Virus record (IMG/VR): IMGVR_UViG_3300043602_000067
Span: 1 to 58,324 of that record
Source of the DNA: a virus
Taxonomy: Duplodnaviria; Caudoviricetes
Reading direction: 5' to 3' (one strand)
Length of the DNA: 58,324 nucleotides
A model generated the notes under the pieces. The model had not been told where the DNA came from. It saw only the letters and a list, made by a program, of their open reading frames with translations, and searched no databases. This document shows positions 35,710 to 47,041 of the stretch, in pieces; positions within the stretch are counted from its first letter, which is position 1, and the number at the start of each line of letters is the position of its first letter. The translations under genes and the position numbers were made by a program.

Positions 35710-38613
35710 ATGAGCTTCCACGGCACCCTGACGCCGCCGACCAACAACAGCAGCATCGTCGTTGGTGCTGCTGGTGGGCCTAGAGGCTTCGCCGCTGGCG
35801 TCACTCAGGTACTCGTCAACTTCCTGCTCAACTACGAGCGTGGCAACCTGGAGCGGATGTCCTCGGACATCAAGAAGTTCGAGCAGGAACGTGCAGAGGC
35901 CAATCAAGCCCTAGTCCAACAGAACAACAAGCTGGTTGCGCTCGACCAGCGCGTCACCGCGGCACAGAAGGCCAAGAGCGACCTGGGCAAAGGTCAGGTC
36001 GCAACGCTCAACGCCATCGCCGCCAGTCAGACGCGCATCAACTCGCTGACCCAACTGGCGGCGCGCAATCAGGCACAGTACGGCGCCGCCCTGACGCGCG
36101 AGAAGGGCATACGCGATCGGTTGATCGCCAACGCATCTGCTGCCAGTGGCCTGTCCTCCAAGCAGGTACGTGACGCAGCCAACCTGGCTTCGCTGGAGCG
36201 TCAGCTCCTAGGCACAACGCTGGACCGCAAGGCAGCAGCGGAGGCGCTCGCTATCGCGGAAAACAAGGTTGCCGCTGCCCAGAGGGCGCAGGCCGCGACC
36301 TCACAGTTCGGCTCTAAGGCAGCCGGGCGCCTGAGCGGCTTGGCTCTCGGCCTGATCGGCGGCACTATCGGCGGGCTGGCTGTCTCCGCGTTGATCACGC
36401 CGGTACAGGACGCCATCACCAACATTGGTGAGCAGCTCAGCGACTTGGCTAACCCGGCTAACAAGGCCAAGGAAGCGGCCGATGGCGTAGCCGAGGCCAT
36501 CGCGCAGATCGGCAGCCAGCAGAACCTGAGCGGGTTGCAGGCCGCAGCCACACTGTTGAAGCAACTCAATTTCCCGCAGGAGCAGGCGGGCGCACTGCTC
36601 CGCGCATCAGACGTGCAGGTAGCCCAGGACTTCCTCACCAAGCAGCAGCAGGTCACCGACTTCCTCCGCGGCGAGCAGCAACTGCGTTCGCAGATAGGCG
36701 CCCAGCTCAACTTCAACAACCGCCTCAACGCCATCAACGTGGAGTTGACACGAAAGGGCGCCGACAACGTAGAGGCGTCGCTCAGCGCAATCAACTTCCT
36801 GCAGCAGATCGGTGCCATCCCTGTCTTCGACCAGTTGGCGCATCTGGCGGGTGGGCCAGGCTTTGCTGACATCTTAGGGTTGAATGAGGAGAACGCTGCC
36901 GCCGCCTATGACGCTGCAGTAACCGAGGGTCGTGCCGCCGACGCAGCAGCCATCCTCGCCTCCAACCTGGAAAACGCCAGGGCGGCAGCGTCCAGTTTGG
37001 CCGACGAGCTTGCCGAGGCTGCTGTCGAGGCCATCAGCGCGGCCAACATCAGTAATCTCGAAGCCGGTCTTAAGAACACGGTCGATGGCATCAACAGGAT
37101 CACCTCCACGGCCATCGACAACATACGCGCTCGGGCTGACAGAGCCTCGGAGTCCGTTAGCAACTCGGCTGAACGGCGCATCAATGCCCTGCAGAAGCAG
37201 ATCCAAGGGTTGGACTCGGGGCCGTCCAACCGCACACAGGCACTACAGCGCCAGCTCGAAGCGCTGAAGGATGTCGGTCCTTCGCGTCAGACCAAGGCGC
37301 TGGCTGACCAGATCGAGCGCCTCAACAAGCTGCAGGATCAGGCTGCCTACCGCCAGTCCCTGCAGGACGTGGCCGAACAGCGTCACGCGGTGCTGCTGGC
37401 CGAGCGGTTGCGTCTGACCAAGCACCAGATCGATCTCGACGACTACCACGGCAAGGATCGGCTCATCGCCATCGATGCCCTGCTGGCCAAGCAGCAGAAG
37501 GCCAACGAGGCACAGGACCGCTTCAACAAGCTGCTCGACATCCAGTACCAGATCCAGCAGGGCGTCCACCGCGAGCAGGGCGAGACGATCCAAGACTTCA
37601 TCCAGCGCCGTGCGCAGTATTACCGCGGGCTGCTGCAGCAGGCAGCAGAACTCAATCGCACCGGCCCACAGGCAGAGCTTGAAGCCGAGCGCGCTCGTGT
37701 GGAGGCGTCGGTCCAACTCAAGGACCTGGAGGAGAAGCGGCGCAAGCTCATCGAGGACCGCGCCCGAGAGCTGCACATGCGCTCGCTGCAGGCGCAGCTA
37801 CAGGCCAGCCAGGAACGCGATCGCAAGGAGCTGGAGTCTCGCAAGGAGGCTCTCCAGAAGCAGATCGAAGCCTCGCGCAAGGCCGATCAGGCTGCCCTCG
37901 AAAGCCGCCGCCAGGCACTGCAGGCGCAGATCGAGGCCGTCCGTAAGAACAGCCAGCAGCAGATAGAGAGCATCCAGAAGCAGCGTGACGCTGACATCGC
38001 GGCGCGTGAGTTGGCGCGCGACAAGGCCATAGCCGCCGTGCAGCGAGTCACTGAGATGGCTATCGCCTCCGAGAAGAAGCGCGCCGAGGACATCAAGCGT
38101 ATAGCCAGCCAGTCCGAGACAGCACGACTCGTGCAAGCATTCCAAGGCGCCCAAAGCCTGGCTCAACTGCAGTTGTTCGCGGGGCAGCTCTCAGGCTCCC
38201 TGTACGCCGTGGGTTACCTCCAGCAGACGGGTCAGTATCTCGGCCTAGATATAGCCACCCGCAATCAGATTGCCGCCAATGCTGCACAAGCGGTGCTGGC
38301 GTACACGAGGAAGTTGAACGAGTTCTACCGCAACACCAGAACGACGACGCCCGCCTTTGCCGAGGGCGGTGTCTTCCGCCTCAACAACATGAACACCCCG
38401 CTCGGCAAGGACGTACGCTGGGGCGATGGCCAAGGCGACGAGATCGGCGTGGTGCTCAGCAACAAGGTCACCCAGGCGTTGCGCGACAACGGCGGTGCCG
38501 GTGGTGGCCCGCTCATCGGTGGTGACGTGATCTTCCAGGCACAGGACCCATGGCGCGACAGCTATCGTTTCAGGCGCATGGCTCGTGACGTGCAGCGCGA
38601 CGAGTTCAACTGA
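35710..38613 (+). CDS. Tape measure protein
   Basis: 967 aa, A/Q/L-rich helical, hydrophobic Gly-rich segment, FAEGG near C-terminus. Confidence 0.88.
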   Translation: MSFHGTLTPPTNNSSIVVGAAGGPRGFAAGVTQVLVNFLLNYERGNLERMSSDIKKFEQERAEANQALVQQNNKLVALDQRVTAAQKAKSDLGKGQVATLNAIAASQTRINSLTQLAARNQAQYGAALTREKGIRDRLIANASAASGLSSKQVRDAANLASLERQLLGTTLDRKAAAEALAIAENKVAAAQRAQAATSQFGSKAAGRLSGLALGLIGGTIGGLAVSALITPVQDAITNIGEQLSDLANPANKAKEAADGVAEAIAQIGSQQNLSGLQAAATLLKQLNFPQEQAGALLRASDVQVAQDFLTKQQQVTDFLRGEQQLRSQIGAQLNFNNRLNAINVELTRKGADNVEASLSAINFLQQIGAIPVFDQLAHLAGGPGFADILGLNEENAAAAYDAAVTEGRAADAAAILASNLENARAAASSLADELAEAAVEAISAANISNLEAGLKNTVDGINRITSTAIDNIRARADRASESVSNSAERRINALQKQIQGLDSGPSNRTQALQRQLEALKDVGPSRQTKALADQIERLNKLQDQAAYRQSLQDVAEQRHAVLLAERLRLTKHQIDLDDYHGKDRLIAIDALLAKQQKANEAQDRFNKLLDIQYQIQQGVHREQGETIQDFIQRRAQYYRGLLQQAAELNRTGPQAELEAERARVEASVQLKDLEEKRRKLIEDRARELHMRSLQAQLQASQERDRKELESRKEALQKQIEASRKADQAALESRRQALQAQIEAVRKNSQQQIESIQKQRDADIAARELARDKAIAAVQRVTEMAIASEKKRAEDIKRIASQSETARLVQAFQGAQSLAQLQLFAGQLSGSLYAVGYLQQTGQYLGLDIATRNQIAANAAQAVLAYTRKLNEFYRNTRTTTPAFAEGGVFRLNNMNTPLGKDVRWGDGQGDEIGVVLSNKVTQALRDNGGAGGGPLIGGDVIFQAQDPWRDSYRFRRMARDVQRDEFN

Positions 38614-39068
38614 TGGCCCAGCGCATCCCGTTGATCCTCTCTGTGCCCACCTCAGCAGGTGGCGATACGGCCGCTGCCACGTTCGCCTTCTTCTCGGGCG
38701 ACTACAGACCGCCTCGGCAGGGGCGCTCGACAGCCTCGGACACCGTGCACAACCAGAACGGCCTCTTCAAGTACCGCTACGACAACGGGCCGAACGTATT
38801 CGAGTGGCAGACCTTCCGCATCATCGTCAGTGATCGCTTTATGAATGACGGCGTAGGCAATACGGCCATCGGTTCGGCTACCCAGCAACTGTCGCACCTG
38901 GACTTCCTGTGGAACTACGTGGAGGGGCCACTGGGCTTCGCTGCGCCCGAGGGCGTATACAGCGTTGATTGGGCAGAGGCGCCGCTGGAGAAGGTGTTCC
39001 GCGGCTTCCCAGGTGCTGCCGGTGACAAGATCGATTGGGACGTGAGCATCAACTTCGAGGAAGGCTGA
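38613..39068 (+). CDS. Probable distal tail protein
   Basis: Size and position after the tape measure; ends INFEEG. Confidence 0.55.
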   Translation: MAQRIPLILSVPTSAGGDTAAATFAFFSGDYRPPRQGRSTASDTVHNQNGLFKYRYDNGPNVFEWQTFRIIVSDRFMNDGVGNTAIGSATQQLSHLDFLWNYVEGPLGFAAPEGVYSVDWAEAPLEKVFRGFPGAAGDKIDWDVSINFEEG

Positions 39069-41234
39069 GTGGTCAGCAGCACCACGCGAAGGACGGGCAC
39101 GATCGTCCGCGTCCACAACGACAACCTGAACGCGTGGCAGGATTACGCTGGTACCGACATCAACATCGACGTGGCTTATCAGTTCCTTGGTGCTATCCAC
39201 GAGGATTACGAGAAGGAACATTGGCAATACCGTGGCCAGGCAGCGATGTGCGCGGATGGTGACGACAGCAAGATCACCAGGTTGCGCATCGGTGATGGCA
39301 CATCCGCGGATCGCAAGATCTACAGCCAGACGATCACCGACCCCGAGGACCCCACCCAGTGGGAGAGCTGGTCGGTCCTGTATACCGGCGACCACTATGC
39401 AGTGGCGATCGAGCCGATAACCGGTGGCGGGCACCGCGTCTACAGTGCCAAGGCCGATGGCATCTACGTGGACAACGTGCTGAAGGTAGCGGCCACCAAC
39501 GTGGTGCGCATCAAGCCTGTCGCGTTCGACCAGAAGCGGCTGTACGTGCAGACGGTAGAGCAGGACACGGACGGCAACCGCGAGCTGCTGTGGTGGTTCG
39601 TGCCCGACGTGCTGGCGGGCGGGGCGGTGCTCATCGAGGACTGCGCCAGCTATCGCTGGTACCGCCACGACATGGTGGCGCTGAAGGGACCCTCGACCTT
39701 CTACTACCGCTTCCGCGCTATGGCTCACGAGGCTGCCTCGCGCAACGCCAAGGCCAGCCAGATCCTGACCTGCGAGACGGCCAACAACCTGTCCAACGAT
39801 GAGTTCAACGAGTGGGACACGATCCGCTACCTGAAAGGCCCGTCCGAGCAGGCTGGCTTCAAGGCCATCGACAACATGTACGTCACCGCGCTCAGCTCTG
39901 CTCGCTGGCCAGGTGGCGCCTACTTCCTGTTCTACAACGAACGCCACTTCGACGATAACGGCAACGTGCTGTCGAACCTCAAGAACCCATTGTTCTGGCA
40001 GCGCAGCGTTGGCTTCCCGTACTACCTCTCTGCCCCTGTGCCCGTGGGCTTCTCTATCTGGGGCTTTGCCGGTGCGGTCCAGTGGGAGGACTACATCTGG
40101 GCGGCGGGTAACGGACGCGTCCTGCGCAGGCCGCAGATGGAAACGACCTTGGAGTTGACCGATTACGTTATCGAGGGCAACTACGAGACCCCGCGTGACA
40201 ACCAGAAGAGCACCGGCACCATGGTCTGCGCCAACGCAGGTAACGCTGTGGGGGCCATGCTTGGCCTCGCTGACACGGATGAGGCGGGGTACACAGAGAG
40301 GCGTGTTGACCTAGCTATCGGCCAGAAGGGCGCATCCGACGAGGACTACACGTGGAAGGTTGACGACTCGTGGTGGATCAGCCGTCTACGCAAGGTCAAG
40401 GGCGAGGATGGGCGCGAGCAGGTGATGGTCAGCATCGGTAACTTCTGGCATCGTCTGGAGGTTCCCTTCCGCGACACGATCATGCTGCCTGGCCACTTCG
40501 AGTGGAGCGACTGGCAACCCGACTCCCCCAACCAGCTCTTCAACTATACGAACGCTTACGACGAGTTCGTGAGCTACAACCCGGTGGGCGCCGACCCCCA
40601 GTACGTGCCACGCCTGAAGACGGTCATCTCGGGCAACCCCGACGTTCCCGCGGGTCTGGATACGATCACTCTCTTTGCAGGTTGGCGTGGCGAGAACGGG
40701 ATGGTGCGCGCCCTGCTATGGGCAGATGGTGGCTTGGTCTTCCGCTACCAGGACGCCGATAACTTCTTCGTGGCGCAGGCAACCTCGTCAGGCACACTCA
40801 CCTTGAAGCGTTTTCAGGATGGCGTGGTCTCAACACTGGCTTCGGTAGCACTGGGGGCAGGGGTTGCGTTCTGGCTGACCGTTGACTATCGCTGGGCGCG
40901 TATCCGTATCGATGTGAACTTCGACGATCTGGTGTTGGAGCACACGCTCGTTGACCCCACACCATTCAGTGGCTTCGTTGGCACGACCAGTCGGGAGATC
41001 AGCAACTTCGAGGTCAGCGACTGGAACGCGGACCTGCGTACCAAGGAACTGCTGCGCATCCTGCTGTCGCATGCGGACGAGCACGAGGTGGAGTTGGAGA
41101 TAGATGAGGAGACTGCCTCGGCTGGCCAGCTAGACCTGCTCTATGGCCCGCAGTCGGATCTCGACGCCCCAGAAAAGGCTTTCCGGCAGGTACTCGAAGC
41201 GAGTAACCTGCAGACTGTTTTCTTGGAGGATTAG
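39069..41234 (+). CDS. Tail-tip hub (Tal-like) protein, N-terminal part
   Basis: Position; LELTDYVI; ends abruptly at FRQVLEASNLQTVFLED. Confidence 0.65.
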   Translation: MVSSTTRRTGTIVRVHNDNLNAWQDYAGTDINIDVAYQFLGAIHEDYEKEHWQYRGQAAMCADGDDSKITRLRIGDGTSADRKIYSQTITDPEDPTQWESWSVLYTGDHYAVAIEPITGGGHRVYSAKADGIYVDNVLKVAATNVVRIKPVAFDQKRLYVQTVEQDTDGNRELLWWFVPDVLAGGAVLIEDCASYRWYRHDMVALKGPSTFYYRFRAMAHEAASRNAKASQILTCETANNLSNDEFNEWDTIRYLKGPSEQAGFKAIDNMYVTALSSARWPGGAYFLFYNERHFDDNGNVLSNLKNPLFWQRSVGFPYYLSAPVPVGFSIWGFAGAVQWEDYIWAAGNGRVLRRPQMETTLELTDYVIEGNYETPRDNQKSTGTMVCANAGNAVGAMLGLADTDEAGYTERRVDLAIGQKGASDEDYTWKVDDSWWISRLRKVKGEDGREQVMVSIGNFWHRLEVPFRDTIMLPGHFEWSDWQPDSPNQLFNYTNAYDEFVSYNPVGADPQYVPRLKTVISGNPDVPAGLDTITLFAGWRGENGMVRALLWADGGLVFRYQDADNFFVAQATSSGTLTLKRFQDGVVSTLASVALGAGVAFWLTVDYRWARIRIDVNFDDLVLEHTLVDPTPFSGFVGTTSREISNFEVSDWNADLRTKELLRILLSHADEHEVELEIDEETASAGQLDLLYGPQSDLDAPEKAFRQVLEASNLQTVFLED

Positions 41235-42203
41235 ATGGGTATCAAGCACGCCCACCAGACGGTCATCGTTGATGATCCGCTGGCTGACGTAAGCGCCGAC
41301 GAGTGGAATGCAGCGCACTCTATCGACGCGCCTATTGCTGTCGCTGATGGTGGGACAGGAGCCGCCACTGCTGCTGCCGCGGCTACTGCTTTGGGAGTGG
41401 GCACCGGTGACTCGCCGCAGCACGCCGGGATAAACCTGGGGCATGCGTCTGACACGACGCTGGGGCGCACCAGTGCGGGGGTGATGAACGTCGAAGGCAA
41501 AGACGTTTACATGGTTGGCGGCGCTGACGTAGCTGTTGCAGACGGTGGAACAGGTGCTGGTACTGCAGGTGGAGCAGCGACCAATCTTGGCCTCGGTACC
41601 GGTGACACGCCGACCTTTACTGGCGTCAATGTAGGCAACGCAGATACCACGGTTACTCGTCTCGCTGCTGGCAGCCTCGCAGTGGAGGGTGTGCCTATCA
41701 AACTCGGCTCGATGTTCGTCCCTGCGGCAGCTATGACGCCCTCGACGACCAGCGGCTGCAAGGCGCCGACACTCCATGAGTCAGCGACCAACAAGCAGAA
41801 CAAGTGGTTCCTTGACTTCATCGACGGCTCGACCACCTTTGCCGAGTGGCTGTCGGCTATGCCTGCCGACTACGACGGTGGCACATTCACCGCGGTGTTC
41901 TACTGGAGCAACGCCAATACCACCGGCAACGTGGTGCGCTGGCAGATAGAGGCCCGCTCGTACGGTGACTTGGAGACCTACGACCAGGCGTTCGGCACCG
42001 CTCAGACCGTTGACGACACCTACAGCACTACGGCCCACCAGGTGGCCATCAGCGCAGCCACAGGAGCCTGTACGCCCTCGGGTACCCCTGCCGCCAATGA
42101 GTTGATGCACTTTCGAGCAGCTCGCGTTGGAGGCAACGCCGCAGACACGCTAACGACCGACGCTCGGCTGATCGGCGTGCGCATCAACTACACGAGAACC
42201 TAG
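41235..42203 (+). CDS. Tail fibre-like protein
   Basis: IKH...DEWNAAH N-terminus; two AVADGGTGA...LGxGTGD repeats. Confidence 0.65.
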   Translation: MGIKHAHQTVIVDDPLADVSADEWNAAHSIDAPIAVADGGTGAATAAAAATALGVGTGDSPQHAGINLGHASDTTLGRTSAGVMNVEGKDVYMVGGADVAVADGGTGAGTAGGAATNLGLGTGDTPTFTGVNVGNADTTVTRLAAGSLAVEGVPIKLGSMFVPAAAMTPSTTSGCKAPTLHESATNKQNKWFLDFIDGSTTFAEWLSAMPADYDGGTFTAVFYWSNANTTGNVVRWQIEARSYGDLETYDQAFGTAQTVDDTYSTTAHQVAISAATGACTPSGTPAANELMHFRAARVGGNAADTLTTDARLIGVRINYTRT

Positions 42204-42871
42204 TGCCTGCCGAGCGGTTCTTCCTACCGGACGTTGCCAACACGATAACGCCTATCTCCCCTGCCTTTGCGGCCTGGGACGTAACCACCTCGGCCACCCG
42301 TGGGCCTGGCCTAGCTGCCAAGGAAGCGGGGGGCACGTCCACTATCCTGGCGGGGACGGGCACGGCCAACCAGAACCGACTGCACCGCCAGATCATCCTG
42401 GGTCCGTTCGCAGCACAGGACGTTAACGTTCTGTTCAAGGGCATTATCCGTACGCGCGAGGACAACGCCTTAGTCGATGCCCGCGCCCAGTGCGTACTGC
42501 GCGCTATCGCCCTAGACGGGAGTACCGTGCTAGCGACGCCAATTAACTTCGATAACAGCGCACTAGCCCAAGAGTTCGGGATAGCCTTCGCGGTACACCG
42601 CTTCCCGCTCGCCTATCCGAGTGGCGGTGCAGCGGTAGTGGCATCCCTTAAACAGCCGTTCTACTGGGCAATCGAGTTAGGCCACCGTAACCACGCCACC
42701 GATGTGAATACCGTGCGCTTGGTATGGCAGGGCGGCATCGGTACGGACCTCTCAGAGACTGAAGGAGATGTAACTGCCGGTGACGGCTGGTTAGAGTTCA
42801 GCGAGACGCTGCCGCGTTACTCTCCCAAGGTCAAGCCCATCCACATGGATGTGGGGATAGGTCTCGCATGA
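42203..42871 (+). CDS. Accessory tail protein
   Basis: TAGTG overlap; structural cluster. Confidence 0.55.
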   Translation: MPAERFFLPDVANTITPISPAFAAWDVTTSATRGPGLAAKEAGGTSTILAGTGTANQNRLHRQIILGPFAAQDVNVLFKGIIRTREDNALVDARAQCVLRAIALDGSTVLATPINFDNSALAQEFGIAFAVHRFPLAYPSGGAAVVASLKQPFYWAIELGHRNHATDVNTVRLVWQGGIGTDLSETEGDVTAGDGWLEFSETLPRYSPKVKPIHMDVGIGLA

Positions 42872-43515
42872 CTCGACTCTTCGACCCAGCCATCTTCGAC
42901 CCGGCGATCTTCGACACGTCCGCCGCAGTCGAGCCTGTCGTATTGCCTACCGGTCACCTGCACATCGGCAAGTTCATCACCGCCGTGCCGCTCTACACGC
43001 TGGAGAACGAGATCATCAATCAGGATGAGATCGACGACGGCAGGCTGCGCGCCAACGTGGTGGTGGTCGATGGACTGCAAGACTCGTGGACGGAGTACGA
43101 CCGCGACGACCTGATAGCTCGCGATACAGCGATCACGGCTTATCTGGACCTACCCGAGCTGAAGACTCCTGGCGACGTGCGTCAGCGTGCGGTGGAGGAG
43201 GTCCAGACTGCGCGTGGGGTGACCAGTCCTGGTGGTGATGTAGCAGGCCCGGTGGTGCTGAGCATCACGCGCATGGACCCGATCTTCTGGATCGATGAGC
43301 ACGGTAACAAGTACCAGACGCGTATCGAGGGTAAGTCGGTAGAGTGGAACCAGAGCCTGACACCTTTCCAACGCGCCTCTATCGATACGGGAGCCATCAT
43401 CTTCTGCCCACCCGAGGGCGATGAGTTGACCTATATTGCTCGTGACCTGTTCGACCGTGACACGGCCATCGGTCTGGGCAGCGCACTGACCGGAGGAGAC
43501 TGGGTAATCACATGA
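42868..43515 (+). CDS. Tail-tip hub, apparent C-terminal part, with FDPAIFDPAIFD leader
   Basis: GHLHIGKF, ANVVVVDG, MDPIFWID...RIEG resemble later hub domains. Confidence 0.55.
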   Translation: MTRLFDPAIFDPAIFDTSAAVEPVVLPTGHLHIGKFITAVPLYTLENEIINQDEIDDGRLRANVVVVDGLQDSWTEYDRDDLIARDTAITAYLDLPELKTPGDVRQRAVEEVQTARGVTSPGGDVAGPVVLSITRMDPIFWIDEHGNKYQTRIEGKSVEWNQSLTPFQRASIDTGAIIFCPPEGDELTYIARDLFDRDTAIGLGSALTGGDWVIT

Positions 43516-44198
43516 TCGATCGCATCATCGACCTGCTGCGCTCCAAGGGCATCCTCCATCACGAGGTGGACCTGTGCGTTGACTGCCCGCCAAAGGAGCA
43601 GAAGTTCATCATCTCCCATCAACCAAGTGAGTTCACTGAGAACGATCCACACGTAACCGACCAGATAGTCGAGGACGTACCGAAGCCCGGTAACTGGGGT
43701 GTCGAGACGATCGTCGAAAAGTACGACGGTGACTACACGGCCGAGGAGATCCAGCGGCTGGGGATCAAGCCGGTGGAGGTCGTACGTTCCACGGGAAACC
43801 TTTTGATGAACGCCGGTGCCCAACGGCTCATCGACCAGCTCATCGGCGCCACCACGTTGCCCTTCGATAACACTCACGCCCGCCTCGGGGTGGGTAACTC
43901 ATCGACTGCCGCAGTAGCTACCCACACCGACCTGCAGGCAGCCGCAGGAGCCGGTAATCGCCAGTTCAAGATGGTGGATGCCACCTTCCCGTCACGAGCC
44001 AGCCAGACCGTCACCTTCAAGGCCACCTTCGCTGCCGGTGAGGCACAGTTCGCCTGGTTGGAGTGGTGCATAGATCGCGGTACCGCGGATGGCACGACGG
44101 TCACTGCGCCGATGTTCAACCGCAAGGTGCCGGTCGGCGGGCTGGGCACCAAGGGCGCCGTCTCCTGGGCTTTGACGGTAACGATCACCCCGGCCTGA
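43512..44198 (+). CDS. Accessory virion (fibre-associated) protein
   Basis: NLLMNAG, LGVGNSSTAA..T.TDLQ, ATFAAGEAQFAWLEW, MFNRKV..LGTK. Confidence 0.65.
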   Translation: MIDRIIDLLRSKGILHHEVDLCVDCPPKEQKFIISHQPSEFTENDPHVTDQIVEDVPKPGNWGVETIVEKYDGDYTAEEIQRLGIKPVEVVRSTGNLLMNAGAQRLIDQLIGATTLPFDNTHARLGVGNSSTAAVATHTDLQAAAGAGNRQFKMVDATFPSRASQTVTFKATFAAGEAQFAWLEWCIDRGTADGTTVTAPMFNRKVPVGGLGTKGAVSWALTVTITPA

Positions 44199-44199
44199 C

Positions 44200-45537
44200 A
44201 TGGCCGATCAAGTAGTCTCCAAGGACGCCTACCTAGTCCAGAAGATAGGCGGCAGCACCAAGTACGGCAACGGCGATGGGACCCTGACCATCGTCGGCCG
44301 CGTGCCCTCTGGTGATGGCACCAACGACTGGAAGACGCGCAGCGTCTACGAGATCCCATTGCGCGGTGGTGGAGTGGGCATCCTCGATGGCCTGTCCACG
44401 GTAAGCGCATCCGACTTCGAGTTGACGGTAGCTGGTGCAACCTGCCTGATAGGTGGTCGCGGAGCGCAGTTCTACGCCTTCCTCGAAGAGATCACCACCG
44501 ACTTCGTTGAGAAGGCAGCAGCCGGTGACTGTGCCTTCGGCTCGGGCACAGGGAACGGTGTGTGGGGCGCCGACTCGGGTGCCATCACGACCAATCGGGT
44601 GTTCAAGTCGTCGCCTGGCCTGAATACTGGCGACAAGGTTTCGTTCAACAACACGGCCATGATGCAGGCGTGGTTGGCGGACACCAGCAAGACGGTCGCC
44701 CGAGTGCGCGTCATCTTCGCCAACAGCGCGGGTACAACCTACGACGAGACGGCCGGGGCCGTGCGTGGCACAGCGTTCTACTCGCTCCAACATGCGACGG
44801 CAGGCAACCGCCCTGTGCAGCACGTCACAGGCTCTGGTGGCGCAGTGGCCAAGGGCGACAGCGACACGATCACCATCGACGAGCAGCAAACCAAGACCGA
44901 GTTGTCCACCACGCCCTCGGACAGCGACACGATCACCATCATTGAGTCCGAGGCCGCTGGCCCTGTGCCCACGTGGTACACCGAAGCTGATGAGACCGGT
45001 GCTGGTGTAGGGAAGGTAGTGCTCCCGGCGTCCAACCTATTCACCTCGGCGTTGCTCACTGGGGTGAGCGAGGAGGACGTGGTGATCCAATCCAAGTTCT
45101 CGATCAACAAGATCCCATCCACGCAGAGCGTTATCTGGTGGCACGTCGCTCGCGTGCAGGAACCAACGCTCAGTAACTTCTACGGCCTGCTGGCCTCGTG
45201 CAAGAACATCGGCGGCAACGCTGGCATATCGATCAACATGGTCAAAGAGGTGGGCGGGATCATCACCATCATCGGTACCATCATCAGCCTGCGGGCGCTA
45301 CTGGTGGGCACCGACTACTGGTTGAAGTTCATCGTCTTCGGCACCTCCCCGACCACCATCGCAGGCAAGCTGTGGCGCGACGATGAGAACGAACCGGATG
45401 GCTATCAGGTTACCGGGCAGGACTCCGAGGCTGTGTTGCAGGTCGCTGGGCAGGTAGGATTGCGAGCGTCCACGGCTAACGTGGGCAATCTACCCATCAC
45501 GTTCACCTTCGACGACTTCACGGTGGTAGCACCATGA
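44200..45537 (+). CDS. Tail protein with DSDTITI repeats and C-terminal beta-sandwich (lectin-like) domain
   Basis: GTSPTTIAGKLW...EP...DSEAVLQVAGQVGLR...FDDFTV. Confidence 0.6.
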   Translation: MADQVVSKDAYLVQKIGGSTKYGNGDGTLTIVGRVPSGDGTNDWKTRSVYEIPLRGGGVGILDGLSTVSASDFELTVAGATCLIGGRGAQFYAFLEEITTDFVEKAAAGDCAFGSGTGNGVWGADSGAITTNRVFKSSPGLNTGDKVSFNNTAMMQAWLADTSKTVARVRVIFANSAGTTYDETAGAVRGTAFYSLQHATAGNRPVQHVTGSGGAVAKGDSDTITIDEQQTKTELSTTPSDSDTITIIESEAAGPVPTWYTEADETGAGVGKVVLPASNLFTSALLTGVSEEDVVIQSKFSINKIPSTQSVIWWHVARVQEPTLSNFYGLLASCKNIGGNAGISINMVKEVGGIITIIGTIISLRALLVGTDYWLKFIVFGTSPTTIAGKLWRDDENEPDGYQVTGQDSEAVLQVAGQVGLRASTANVGNLPITFTFDDFTVVAP

Positions 45538-45866
45538 GAGACGGGCAGCGCTACGGGCCTACCAAGCGCACCAGCAACTCCAGCCTGCGCCAGTTGCGCA
45601 CGGTCGAGACCAACGTGCGCCGTACGGCCAACCAGCGCCCGCAGCCCAAGACGCGTACGGCCTTCCTGCTCGATACCTACTCGGGCTATGCCCTGCAGGC
45701 TCTGGTGCAGCTCAGCGACCCACGTACGTCGGTGCGGGGAACGATCATCCGCGCCTCCATCCGGCCAGGCATCGGGTTGCCCAACGCGGTGGCCGCTGGC
45801 ACCCCTGTGACCATCGTCATCCGCCACGGACAGGTCGAGATCATCGGCCTCTCGTCGAGCTTGTAG
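45534..45866 (+). CDS. Small tail-region protein
   Basis: ATGA/TAGTG overlaps; OB-like GTPVTIVIRHGQVEIIG ending. Confidence 0.5.
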   Translation: MRDGQRYGPTKRTSNSSLRQLRTVETNVRRTANQRPQPKTRTAFLLDTYSGYALQALVQLSDPRTSVRGTIIRASIRPGIGLPNAVAAGTPVTIVIRHGQVEIIGLSSSL

Positions 45867-47041
45867 TGGCCTGCAACGAGGGCGTTGACCCTGCTGACTT
45901 CGCGCCTGGAGCGATAGATCCGGTTGACGATCCGACTACGCCGGACCCGGAGGTATCGATCCTCGACGGTGAGGTGATCGTCAGCGGTGGCAGCCGCACC
46001 GCCAAGTTCGTAGTCGAGATGAGCAACGTCAACGCTATAGACGTGTCGATGCGTTACGACACATCGAACGGTGCGGCACAGGCAGGCATCCACTACACCG
46101 CCAAGATCAATCAGACGCTCATCATCAGCGCGGGTAACACGCGCGGCATCATCACCGTCAATATCCTCGAACCGAGCAACTACATCGGCAACTACAACTT
46201 CCGCGTTACCCTGTCAGCACCGGTTGACTGCACGATCGACGATGCGCTTGGCGACATCTTCGTCCACTTTCCCTACGGTGATGGTGGTGATCCGCCGCCA
46301 CCGCCGCCACCGCCGCCAGACGACAGCTCGTTCACCGGCTTCCAGAAGCCCGGTACGGTGTATGACCAGTTCGTGGGCTGCGACTACACCTATTCCTGTA
46401 CAGCGGCGGCGACCGGAGCGGCAATGTCCGGCCTGGTCCAGAAGGCCACTGGGCGAGACATCGCCTTCGATTGGAAGAAGCTCTATCGAGATGCTGGTGG
46501 CTGCCTCTCGTGCGGGCACTCGTGCAACGGCGAGAACTGGCTGACTATGCTGCGTCACCTGAAGAACACCGGCATCAAGGAGGAGGACAGCTCGACCTTC
46601 CGCAAGATCGCATCGTTCTCGGAGTTGAACCGGTCACAAGGTAAGTCGGGGCTGATCGCGGACATCAAACAGGCCATCAAAGCACACGGTGTCGTGTACC
46701 TCGCCTCGCCGTGGTACTCGGACCTGTCGGCGGGGCAACCTGGCTGGAACCGCTGCTACTCGTGCAACGACTTCGTGCTCCAGAACCCGGACGCCAACGG
46801 GCCATACGGCAAGAACACCTCGCCGCGCTGCCTGAACATGAAAGGCATGACCGCGGCCGCGTTCGGCCACGCCTGGATATTGACCGGTTGGAACAACAAC
46901 AAGGCCAACGGGGCATTCGAGATCCAATCGAGCCACGGTCGTGATTGGGGCAACGACGGCCGCGGTTGGATGCCATACTCGTACCTGGGGATCACCGGGA
47001 AGTGGCATTACTTCAAGGTGATCTACGGCGGCGTAGTTTAG
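45866..47041 (+). CDS. Calx-beta domain + papain-like (C1) cysteine peptidase
   Basis: Calx-beta pattern (FVVEMS, YDTSNGAAQAGIHY, FRVTLSAP); poly-Pro linker; DQ...SCTA, GHAWILTGW, QSSHGRDWGNDGRGWMPY. Confidence 0.78.
   Translation: MACNEGVDPADFAPGAIDPVDDPTTPDPEVSILDGEVIVSGGSRTAKFVVEMSNVNAIDVSMRYDTSNGAAQAGIHYTAKINQTLIISAGNTRGIITVNILEPSNYIGNYNFRVTLSAPVDCTIDDALGDIFVHFPYGDGGDPPPPPPPPPDDSSFTGFQKPGTVYDQFVGCDYTYSCTAAATGAAMSGLVQKATGRDIAFDWKKLYRDAGGCLSCGHSCNGENWLTMLRHLKNTGIKEEDSSTFRKIASFSELNRSQGKSGLIADIKQAIKAHGVVYLASPWYSDLSAGQPGWNRCYSCNDFVLQNPDANGPYGKNTSPRCLNMKGMTAAAFGHAWILTGWNNNKANGAFEIQSSHGRDWGNDGRGWMPYSYLGITGKWHYFKVIYGGVV

Follow-up and report, generated by a model that had tools for sequence, protein, structure and literature searches.

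The subunits of chaperone–usher pili are held together by strand donation, in which one polypeptide supplies a strand that completes the unfinished beta-sandwich of another. The pilins are Ig-like and lack the last strand of the fold; the donor is the N-terminal extension of the next subunit, for which a periplasmic chaperone first stands in. A comparable arrangement appears to exist in the tail genes of a Caudoviricetes virus, the whole IMG/VR record IMGVR_UViG_3300043602_000067, which is the window analysed here (58,324 bases, ∼62 per cent G+C, estimated to be 97 per cent complete). By sequence comparison, a ConA/CBM66-like beta-sandwich is divided between two gene products: its opening strands, b1 and b2, are the last 27 residues of gpA (215 aa; 42868..43515, + strand, as are all features below), read as a tail-tip or baseplate module, and the remainder is the C-terminal domain of gpC (445 aa; 44200..45537). 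It is probable that an insertion into a loop split a single sandwich, and that the two halves were kept and are reassembled non-covalently, tethering gpC to the tail tip.

The likeness to chaperone–usher pili lies in an incomplete sandwich that is completed by another chain, which here is predicted only. The differences are that the fold is ConA/CBM66-like, that the first two strands are missing, that the donor is a C-terminal tail and that the setting is a phage tail; in addition, an unsplit form resembling the ancestor can still be seen, on the metagenome contig L003. For the neighbouring genes, Pfam and PHROG gave no chaperone or usher family, and the window system is an analogue of the donor-strand systems, not a member of them. 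Closer in setting is the Dit of p2-type lactococcal phages with its "arm and hand", in which, according to passages of one report, the receptor-binding protein is held by a two-stranded beta extension that belongs to a baseplate protein (PMC9692632). Such an extension as holder is what the two systems would share, but the Dit hairpin, as those passages describe it, clasps a complete domain (PMC9692632), whereas the gpA hairpin would be integral to the fold of its partner and derived by gene splitting. The searched passages of the paper on mycobacteriophage Douge (PMC13033339) make no mention of such a split, and no description of a split domain of this kind in phage tails was found in the literature searched, the coverage of which leaves out most subscription journals and is not proof of absence. 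What appears to be new here is a ConA-like domain that, as far as its sequences indicate, was genetically cut in a loop and has been retained throughout a clade as parts of two tail genes, with the unsplit form extant.

Complementary coverage of the sandwich domain

A profile of 218 positions was built from 117 representatives of the intact domain, with the split phage forms excluded, and was searched against all 1530 six-frame open reading frames (ORFs) of the window. gpC matches positions 39–215 (E 8.3e-40) with nothing for positions 1–38, and the last 26 residues of gpA match positions 5–30 (E 0.001–0.0018 among the 1530 window ORFs). The gpA tail is the second-best match of this search, the next having an E of ∼1, and gpB (228 aa; 43512..44198), encoded between the two, gave no match to the profile. 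This complementary coverage indicates that the two pieces abut in the b2–b3 loop, with no overlap and no missing strand: the putative donor hairpin (gpA residues 189–215; 43432..43512) stops three residues past the conserved tryptophan of b2, at a stop codon in 43513–43515, and the putative acceptor (gpC residues 257–445; 44968..45534) takes up the fold from b3 and carries it to the last strand. By this profile search, the genome, estimated to be 97 per cent complete, has no member of the sandwich family besides gpA and gpC.

An earlier note on this DNA had taken a peptide from the end of gpA and blocks of sequence from gpC for the first strand and the remainder of a lectin-like domain. The quoted peptide is indeed the exact C-terminus of 42868..43515, and the quoted blocks sit in the last ∼190 aa of 44200..45537. 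That they are parts of one domain is borne out by the profile coverage, but the peptide comprises two strands, b1 and b2, rather than the first alone. Nor is the gpC C-terminal domain complete in sequence without the peptide, profile positions 1–38 being absent from gpC.

Family databases add little at this level. Neither gpA nor gpC belongs to a Pfam or PHROG family (for gpC at a Pfam cut-off of E<=0.1), and no Pfam family covers the sandwich domain: the L003 ORF, which holds an intact sandwich, reaches GH43_C2 only at E 0.18, short of the cut-off. Searched by sequence against the PDB, the same ORF (used as the query in place of gpC) found no chain.

The fold of the gpC C-terminal domain was compared by structure. 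The AlphaFold2 (AF2) model of gpC has a mean predicted local distance difference test (pLDDT) of 80.1 and contains two beta-sandwiches, of which the C-terminal one is closest to CBM66 (4b1m_C, Z 18.6, root-mean-square deviation (rmsd) 2.0, 148 aligned; 4azz_A, Z 18.4, rmsd 2.0, 149 aligned) and also matches many legume lectins (Z 14.5–15), with a Foldseek E of 2.7e-6 to the ConA-like fold. The aligned ranges begin at residue 17 of 4azz_A (17–165) and at about residues 20–22 of the legume lectins, leaving the N-terminal strand or strands unmatched; this late start fits the missing strands, but it is soft evidence, being sensitive to tags and to the numbering of the entries. The phage domain thus shares with the CBM66 of Bacillus subtilis (4azz, 4b1m) and with legume lectins a ConA-like fold, CBM66 being its best structural match, and differs from them in having no sequence-level membership and no N-terminal strands in cis. 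By fold likeness of the model, the domain would be of a sugar-binding type.

Intact relatives and the conserved gpA tail

In a phmmer search with gpC residues 245–445 against 1.84 billion representatives, 1402 proteins reached E<=0.001, of which 331 also reached E<=1e-10; most are large multi-domain proteins. The 150 listed matches were re-aligned, and the 133 with a domain covering most of the query were taken as the representative set. Among these listed matches, 117 of the 133 domains are preceded in their own chain, at a distance of no more than 45 residues, by a D.[FYW].[RP] motif. The other 16 comprise 12 gpC orthologues, one protein with a degenerate motif (P0079) and three truncated ORFs (P0098, P0130 and P0153) that begin inside the domain on contigs of ∼2 kb. 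The 12 orthologues are 207–446 aa long with the architecture of gpC; ten are close, and P0179 and P0187 are distant. The latter two had been candidates for an independent second split family, which was rejected, as they are distant gpC orthologues. All non-truncated domains without b1–b2 are therefore gpC orthologues of one lineage, and the suggestion in the earlier note of a general route for grafting fibres is unsupported: in the representative set of 133, the split is confined to this lineage.

The intact family is characterized by an N-terminal D-x-F-x-R ... GG-x-W/Y motif and a C-terminal last strand of FDDF type. In the Streptomyces phages Dubu (gp16, 1273 aa) and Zuko (gp24, 1249 aa), motif and domain are collinear in one chain; Dubu gp16 lies directly downstream of the tape measure and Zuko gp24 after one 142-aa gene. 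That the domain is known in actinobacterial surface proteins, as the earlier note had stated, also holds, since intact copies occur there, for example in an Arthrobacter PKD-domain protein (P0034) that carries motif and domain twice. The intact actinobacterial and actinophage domain is of the same sequence family as the gpC domain (the profile match cited above, E 8.3e-40), but it is one piece of one chain, whereas in the window the b1–b2 motif is on gpA and the rest on gpC. In a collection of cultured phages the region had no DNA match, gpA and a 721-aa protein encoded upstream had no protein match, and gpC was matched through its C-terminal domain only, to the Dubu and Zuko proteins.

An unsplit form of the window arrangement itself is carried by L003, a metagenome contig of 1605 bases. 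One L003 ORF aligns to gpA residues 89–214 (38 per cent identity, E 4e-25), covers profile positions 4–217 unbroken in one chain (E 1.1e-49), and aligns to gpC residues 375–442 (49 per cent identity, E 4e-14). The ORF downstream is a homologue (E 2e-5) of the 110-aa gene that follows gpC in the window (45534..45866) and would mark where the ancestral gene had its 3′ flank, which has been conserved. The upstream reading frame aligns to the junction region of P0029, a longer relative of gpA (E 7e-10), so the unsplit gene may well extend beyond what the contig shows. Together with Dubu gp16, Zuko gp24 and P0034, this ORF answers the question of whether single proteins span both parts of the proposed domain. 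Relatives' DNA was sought in viral-contig, genome-contig and metagenome-contig sets; the first two held none, and the third held L003 only. A frameshift lies within L003:150–230, where frame 2 ends at 208 and frame 1 resumes at 223; it stems either from misassembly or from decay of the gene.

On the gpA side, there are 14 homologues of near equal length and 13 longer ones (441–935 aa), giving, with the window protein, a family of 28 at 48–72 per cent overall identity. All 28 end, by stop codon, at profile position 29–31, and all 28 tails match the profile (E 1.1e-6 to 0.014). Seven tail residues are invariant in 28 of 28 (R192, D193, F195, G204, G209, G210 and W212), and the mean pairwise identity of the tail is 0.585 vs 0.558 for the body. 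The N-terminus of gpA carries a tandem 15-nt repeat (42878–42907) that gives FDPAI-FDPAI; relatives have AFQ-DAFQ-type repeats there.

These observations bear on two other explanations. The first is that a short peptide resembles a common motif by chance, and BLAST with the peptide alone indeed gives only weak matches, reaching E 0.32 for Dubu gp16 and, over 17 residues, E 22 for Zuko gp24. However, the profile match is second best of 1530 ORFs and falls exactly at the end of the protein, it is repeated by every one of the 28 family members, and L003 runs from the peptide straight into the full domain. The rank, the repetition and the continuity between them exclude chance, which we would hold to be extremely improbable.

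The second is that the arrangement is a recombination scar, in which the gpA tail is a remnant that no longer does anything, and the truncated gpC sandwich folds or works alone, gpC attaching to the virion by other contacts. This gains something from the AF2 model, in which the gpC C-terminal domain is confidently folded without the peptide, and from the visible reshuffling of tail genes by fusions and fissions in this lineage. At 48–72 per cent overall identity, however, a useless tail would be expected to decay or be trimmed, and the gpA tail is conserved at least as well as the body, its seven invariant residues standing at positions conserved in intact domains. The conserved tail, the common end point in 28 of 28 and the invariant residues indicate that the split is not a decaying scar, and this account is unlikely.

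Predicted reassembly of the halves

Six pairs of gpA-family and gpC-type proteins have equal longest-contig sizes (7258, 35023, 13140, 56398, 28018 and 10921 bases). The gene order of the relatives is not directly readable, and the equal sizes lead us to read the six pairs as lying on the same contigs.

For the complex, gpC residues 246–445 were folded with gpA residues 161–215 in three runs, alongside three controls. The interface score ipSAE was 0.87 (runs 0.86, 0.89 and 0.87) vs 0.00 for the best control; of 157 solved complexes, 116 reach that mark, as do 2 of the 215 mismatched pairs, a calibration that is only rough here because halves of split domains tend to pass and the alignments were our own. 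The runs agree in >=90 per cent of contacts, with a partner pLDDT of 65. In the prediction, gpA 190–195 contacts the last strand of gpC (438–443), gpA 211–214 contacts gpC 283–286, and gpA F195 points into the gpC core (residues 261, 270 and 271). These are the contacts that b1 and b2 would be expected to make in an intact domain. Structure prediction of peptide plus domain, which the earlier note had proposed as a check, thus placed the gpA tail at the position of the missing strands. It speaks for likeness and plausibility, not for binding, and no complex of this kind was found in the PDB by sequence with the gpA profile and the L003 ORF as queries.

A different use of the tail has also to be considered, in which it packs on gpA itself, on a gpA oligomer or on another tail protein, and the descent from the sandwich is history only. 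The fold of gpA is not modelled (AF2 pLDDT 39.1), its profile has no PDB match by sequence, and a protein-atlas look-up gave only sub-0.9 leads, to baseplate families. With the data at hand, a gpC-type partner could be identified for 6 of the 27 gpA-family proteins outside the window, the comparison not extending to the other 21, as this account would allow. It fits less well with gpC being the sole other sandwich-family member of a 97 per cent complete genome, with six relatives that appear to keep both halves, and with a predicted interface that matches b1 and b2 of the intact fold; we give such re-use a low probability.

Several points weigh against the split and reassembled sandwich. The co-residence of the six pairs was deduced from equal longest-contig sizes and not from DNA, and the 21 gpA proteins without a matched partner include some with longest contigs of 53757, 62481, 54392 and 47840 bases. 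The success of the complex prediction may reflect the model's knowledge of intact ConA-like domains. AF2 folds the gpC C-terminal domain confidently without the peptide (blocks at ∼80–94), so that the model alone gives no sign of instability in that domain. The sole unsplit form is one 1605-base metagenome contig with a frameshift inside the gpA module. Finally, with the gpA model having failed, the tail may have a role within gpA.

The sequences show that the halves are homologous to one domain and complementary, that an unsplit form exists and that each half has been conserved; the direction of the event, the reassembly and the anchoring are inferred, as follows. An ancestral long tail-tip protein, of the kind of Dubu gp16, would have ended in a ConA/CBM66-like beta-sandwich. 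An insertion of ∼1.45 kb into the b2–b3 loop, which brought in gpB together with the beginning of a new gene, would have given gpA its stop codon just after b2, and the strands from b3 to the last would have been captured as the gpC C-terminal domain, in one frame with the newly acquired CBM-like head and flexible linker that precede them. In the virion, the gpA hairpin would then insert into the incomplete gpC sandwich, b1 along the last strand and b2 along strand 283–286, and the rebuilt domain would tether gpC, and hence its predicted glycan-binding N-terminal head, to the tail tip by a linker of ∼40 residues. Because gpA is a covalent part of a large tail-tip protein in some relatives, gpA is taken as the anchored partner and gpC as the cargo; it is most likely that gpA anchors gpC by two-strand complementation.

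There is a stronger version of this mechanism, in which the split sandwich is an obligate plug and socket. Here gpC would fold fully only after capturing the gpA hairpin, and the head could mature nowhere but on the tail tip, which requirement would be an assembly checkpoint. The gpA plug, which in relatives stands behind at least three N-terminal architectures, would be a universal socket-filler and let the lineage swap cargo proteins, and gpB might, by analogy with donor-strand exchange, serve as a transient stand-in chaperone. We regard this version as doubtful.

Should the halves reassemble as proposed, the locus would represent natural protein-fragment complementation used in building a virion. 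A gene-cassette cut in a lectin-like domain would have become the joint by which a new receptor-binding head is attached, a concrete path to new tail appendages without the evolution of a new docking interface. The pair would also be a compact, evolution-tested peptide and socket (∼27 + ∼190 residues), and the L003-type unsplit and the split forms permit a direct comparison of before and after.

The presumed inserted cassette and the tail-module gene order

Between the halves, the earlier note had seen an NLL-type accessory gene and a fibre N-terminus with DSDTITI repeats. The first stands, the 228-aa gpB containing NLLMNAG, and so do the repeats, of which there are two units; the supposed fibre N-terminus is instead a globular, CBM-like sandwich. 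gpB, the first gene of the inserted cassette, matches phrog_23653 (E 8.7e-37, no function annotated) and weakly the tail-fibre family phrog_4176 (E 0.0018), and has no significant relative in the PDB by sequence (one match, E 0.79). A second fibre or a chaperone are possible roles for it in the cassette. No direct repeats flank the ends of the cassette.

The N-terminal part of gpC (residues 1–215; 44200..44844) is predicted to be a beta-sandwich and is likely a glycan-binding head. Its pLDDT by block is mostly 78–93, dipping to 62–70 at residues 21–30 and 101–130, and residues 1–212 give a VIA match to the chondroitin-sulfate-binding CBM 8wab_A (Z 17.1, rmsd 3.2, 171 aligned). It also matches central-fibre/baseplate chains of mycobacteriophage Douge (8zdo_a: Z 14.8, rmsd 3.8, 167 aligned).

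The linker that follows (residues 216–253; 44845..44958) has a pLDDT <50 and is poorly conserved, those of the orthologues being variable and similarly acidic and Thr-rich. An exact 21-nt direct repeat within it (44857–44877 and 44920–44940) encodes DSDTITI twice. Since the linker is disordered and variable, no strand in cis replaces b1–b2, and the DSDTITI segment was rejected as a substitute for b1 on the same grounds. W259, just behind the linker, is invariant in 13 gpC orthologues, which keep the truncated domain. It was considered as a second copy of the b2 tryptophan and rejected: a manual extension of the profile alignment, which itself starts at position 39, would put W259 on the b3 aromatic residue.

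The cassette also bears on whether the halves might be one chain after all, the 1.45-kb insert being removed by RNA splicing, protein splicing or ribosomal bypass. This was raised solely because the break is clean and in a loop, and no support for it was found. Against it, the insert contains the gene for gpB and the coding sequence of the gpC N-terminal domain, a domain that is modelled with confidence and conserved in orthologues. No intron or ribozyme family was found, three Rfam matches falling far below gathering scores; gpA, gpB and gpC contain no intein or homing-endonuclease Pfam family; and the gpA stop codon is present in 28 of 28 relatives. A single chain is therefore highly improbable.

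The break in the sandwich is not the only one in the ancestral gene, as the earlier note had also claimed. In P0025, residues 1–741 align to the whole 721-aa tail-tip protein of the window (39069–41234; 45 per cent identity, E 0) and then run into the gpA module, while in the window the two are separated by an upstream cassette (41235..42871) of two genes, encoding a 322-aa protein (41235–42203) with matches to tail-fibre PHROGs (phrog_37013, E 7e-10) and a 222-aa protein (42203–42871). The fusion in P0025 confirms that an earlier split exists, but the upstream break falls at a domain boundary and strand complementation is thus not implied there, as it had been by the claim that the same event happened twice.

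From the protein sequences, genes of this tail module often fuse and split. In all 13 longer forms the gpA module is at the C-terminus; it stands behind a homologue of the 721-aa protein in P0025, P0029 and P0030, behind a look-alike of the 222-aa protein, judged by eye, in P0018, P0024, P0026 and P0028, and behind other N-terminal parts in the remainder. In a further gpA relative, P0017 (256 aa), the first ∼60 residues match by eye the C-terminal end of the 721-aa type (cf. P0029 ∼660–725), and the upstream break seems to lie at a different point in that phage.

Further upstream, a 967-aa ORF ending at 38613 is taken to encode the tape measure, given how long it is, where it lies and how coiled and repetitive its sequence looks, and a 151-aa ORF (38613–39068) separates it from the 721-aa gene. 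Downstream of the 110-aa gene lies a gene for a 391-aa protein (45866–47041) with Pfam and PHROG matches to a Calx-beta domain (E 1.8e-6) and, weakly, to papain-like peptidases (PF00112, E 0.031; phrog_16701, E 0.0014). It also contains a Pro-rich linker, and by these matches is possibly an unusual endolysin or a tail-associated peptidase.

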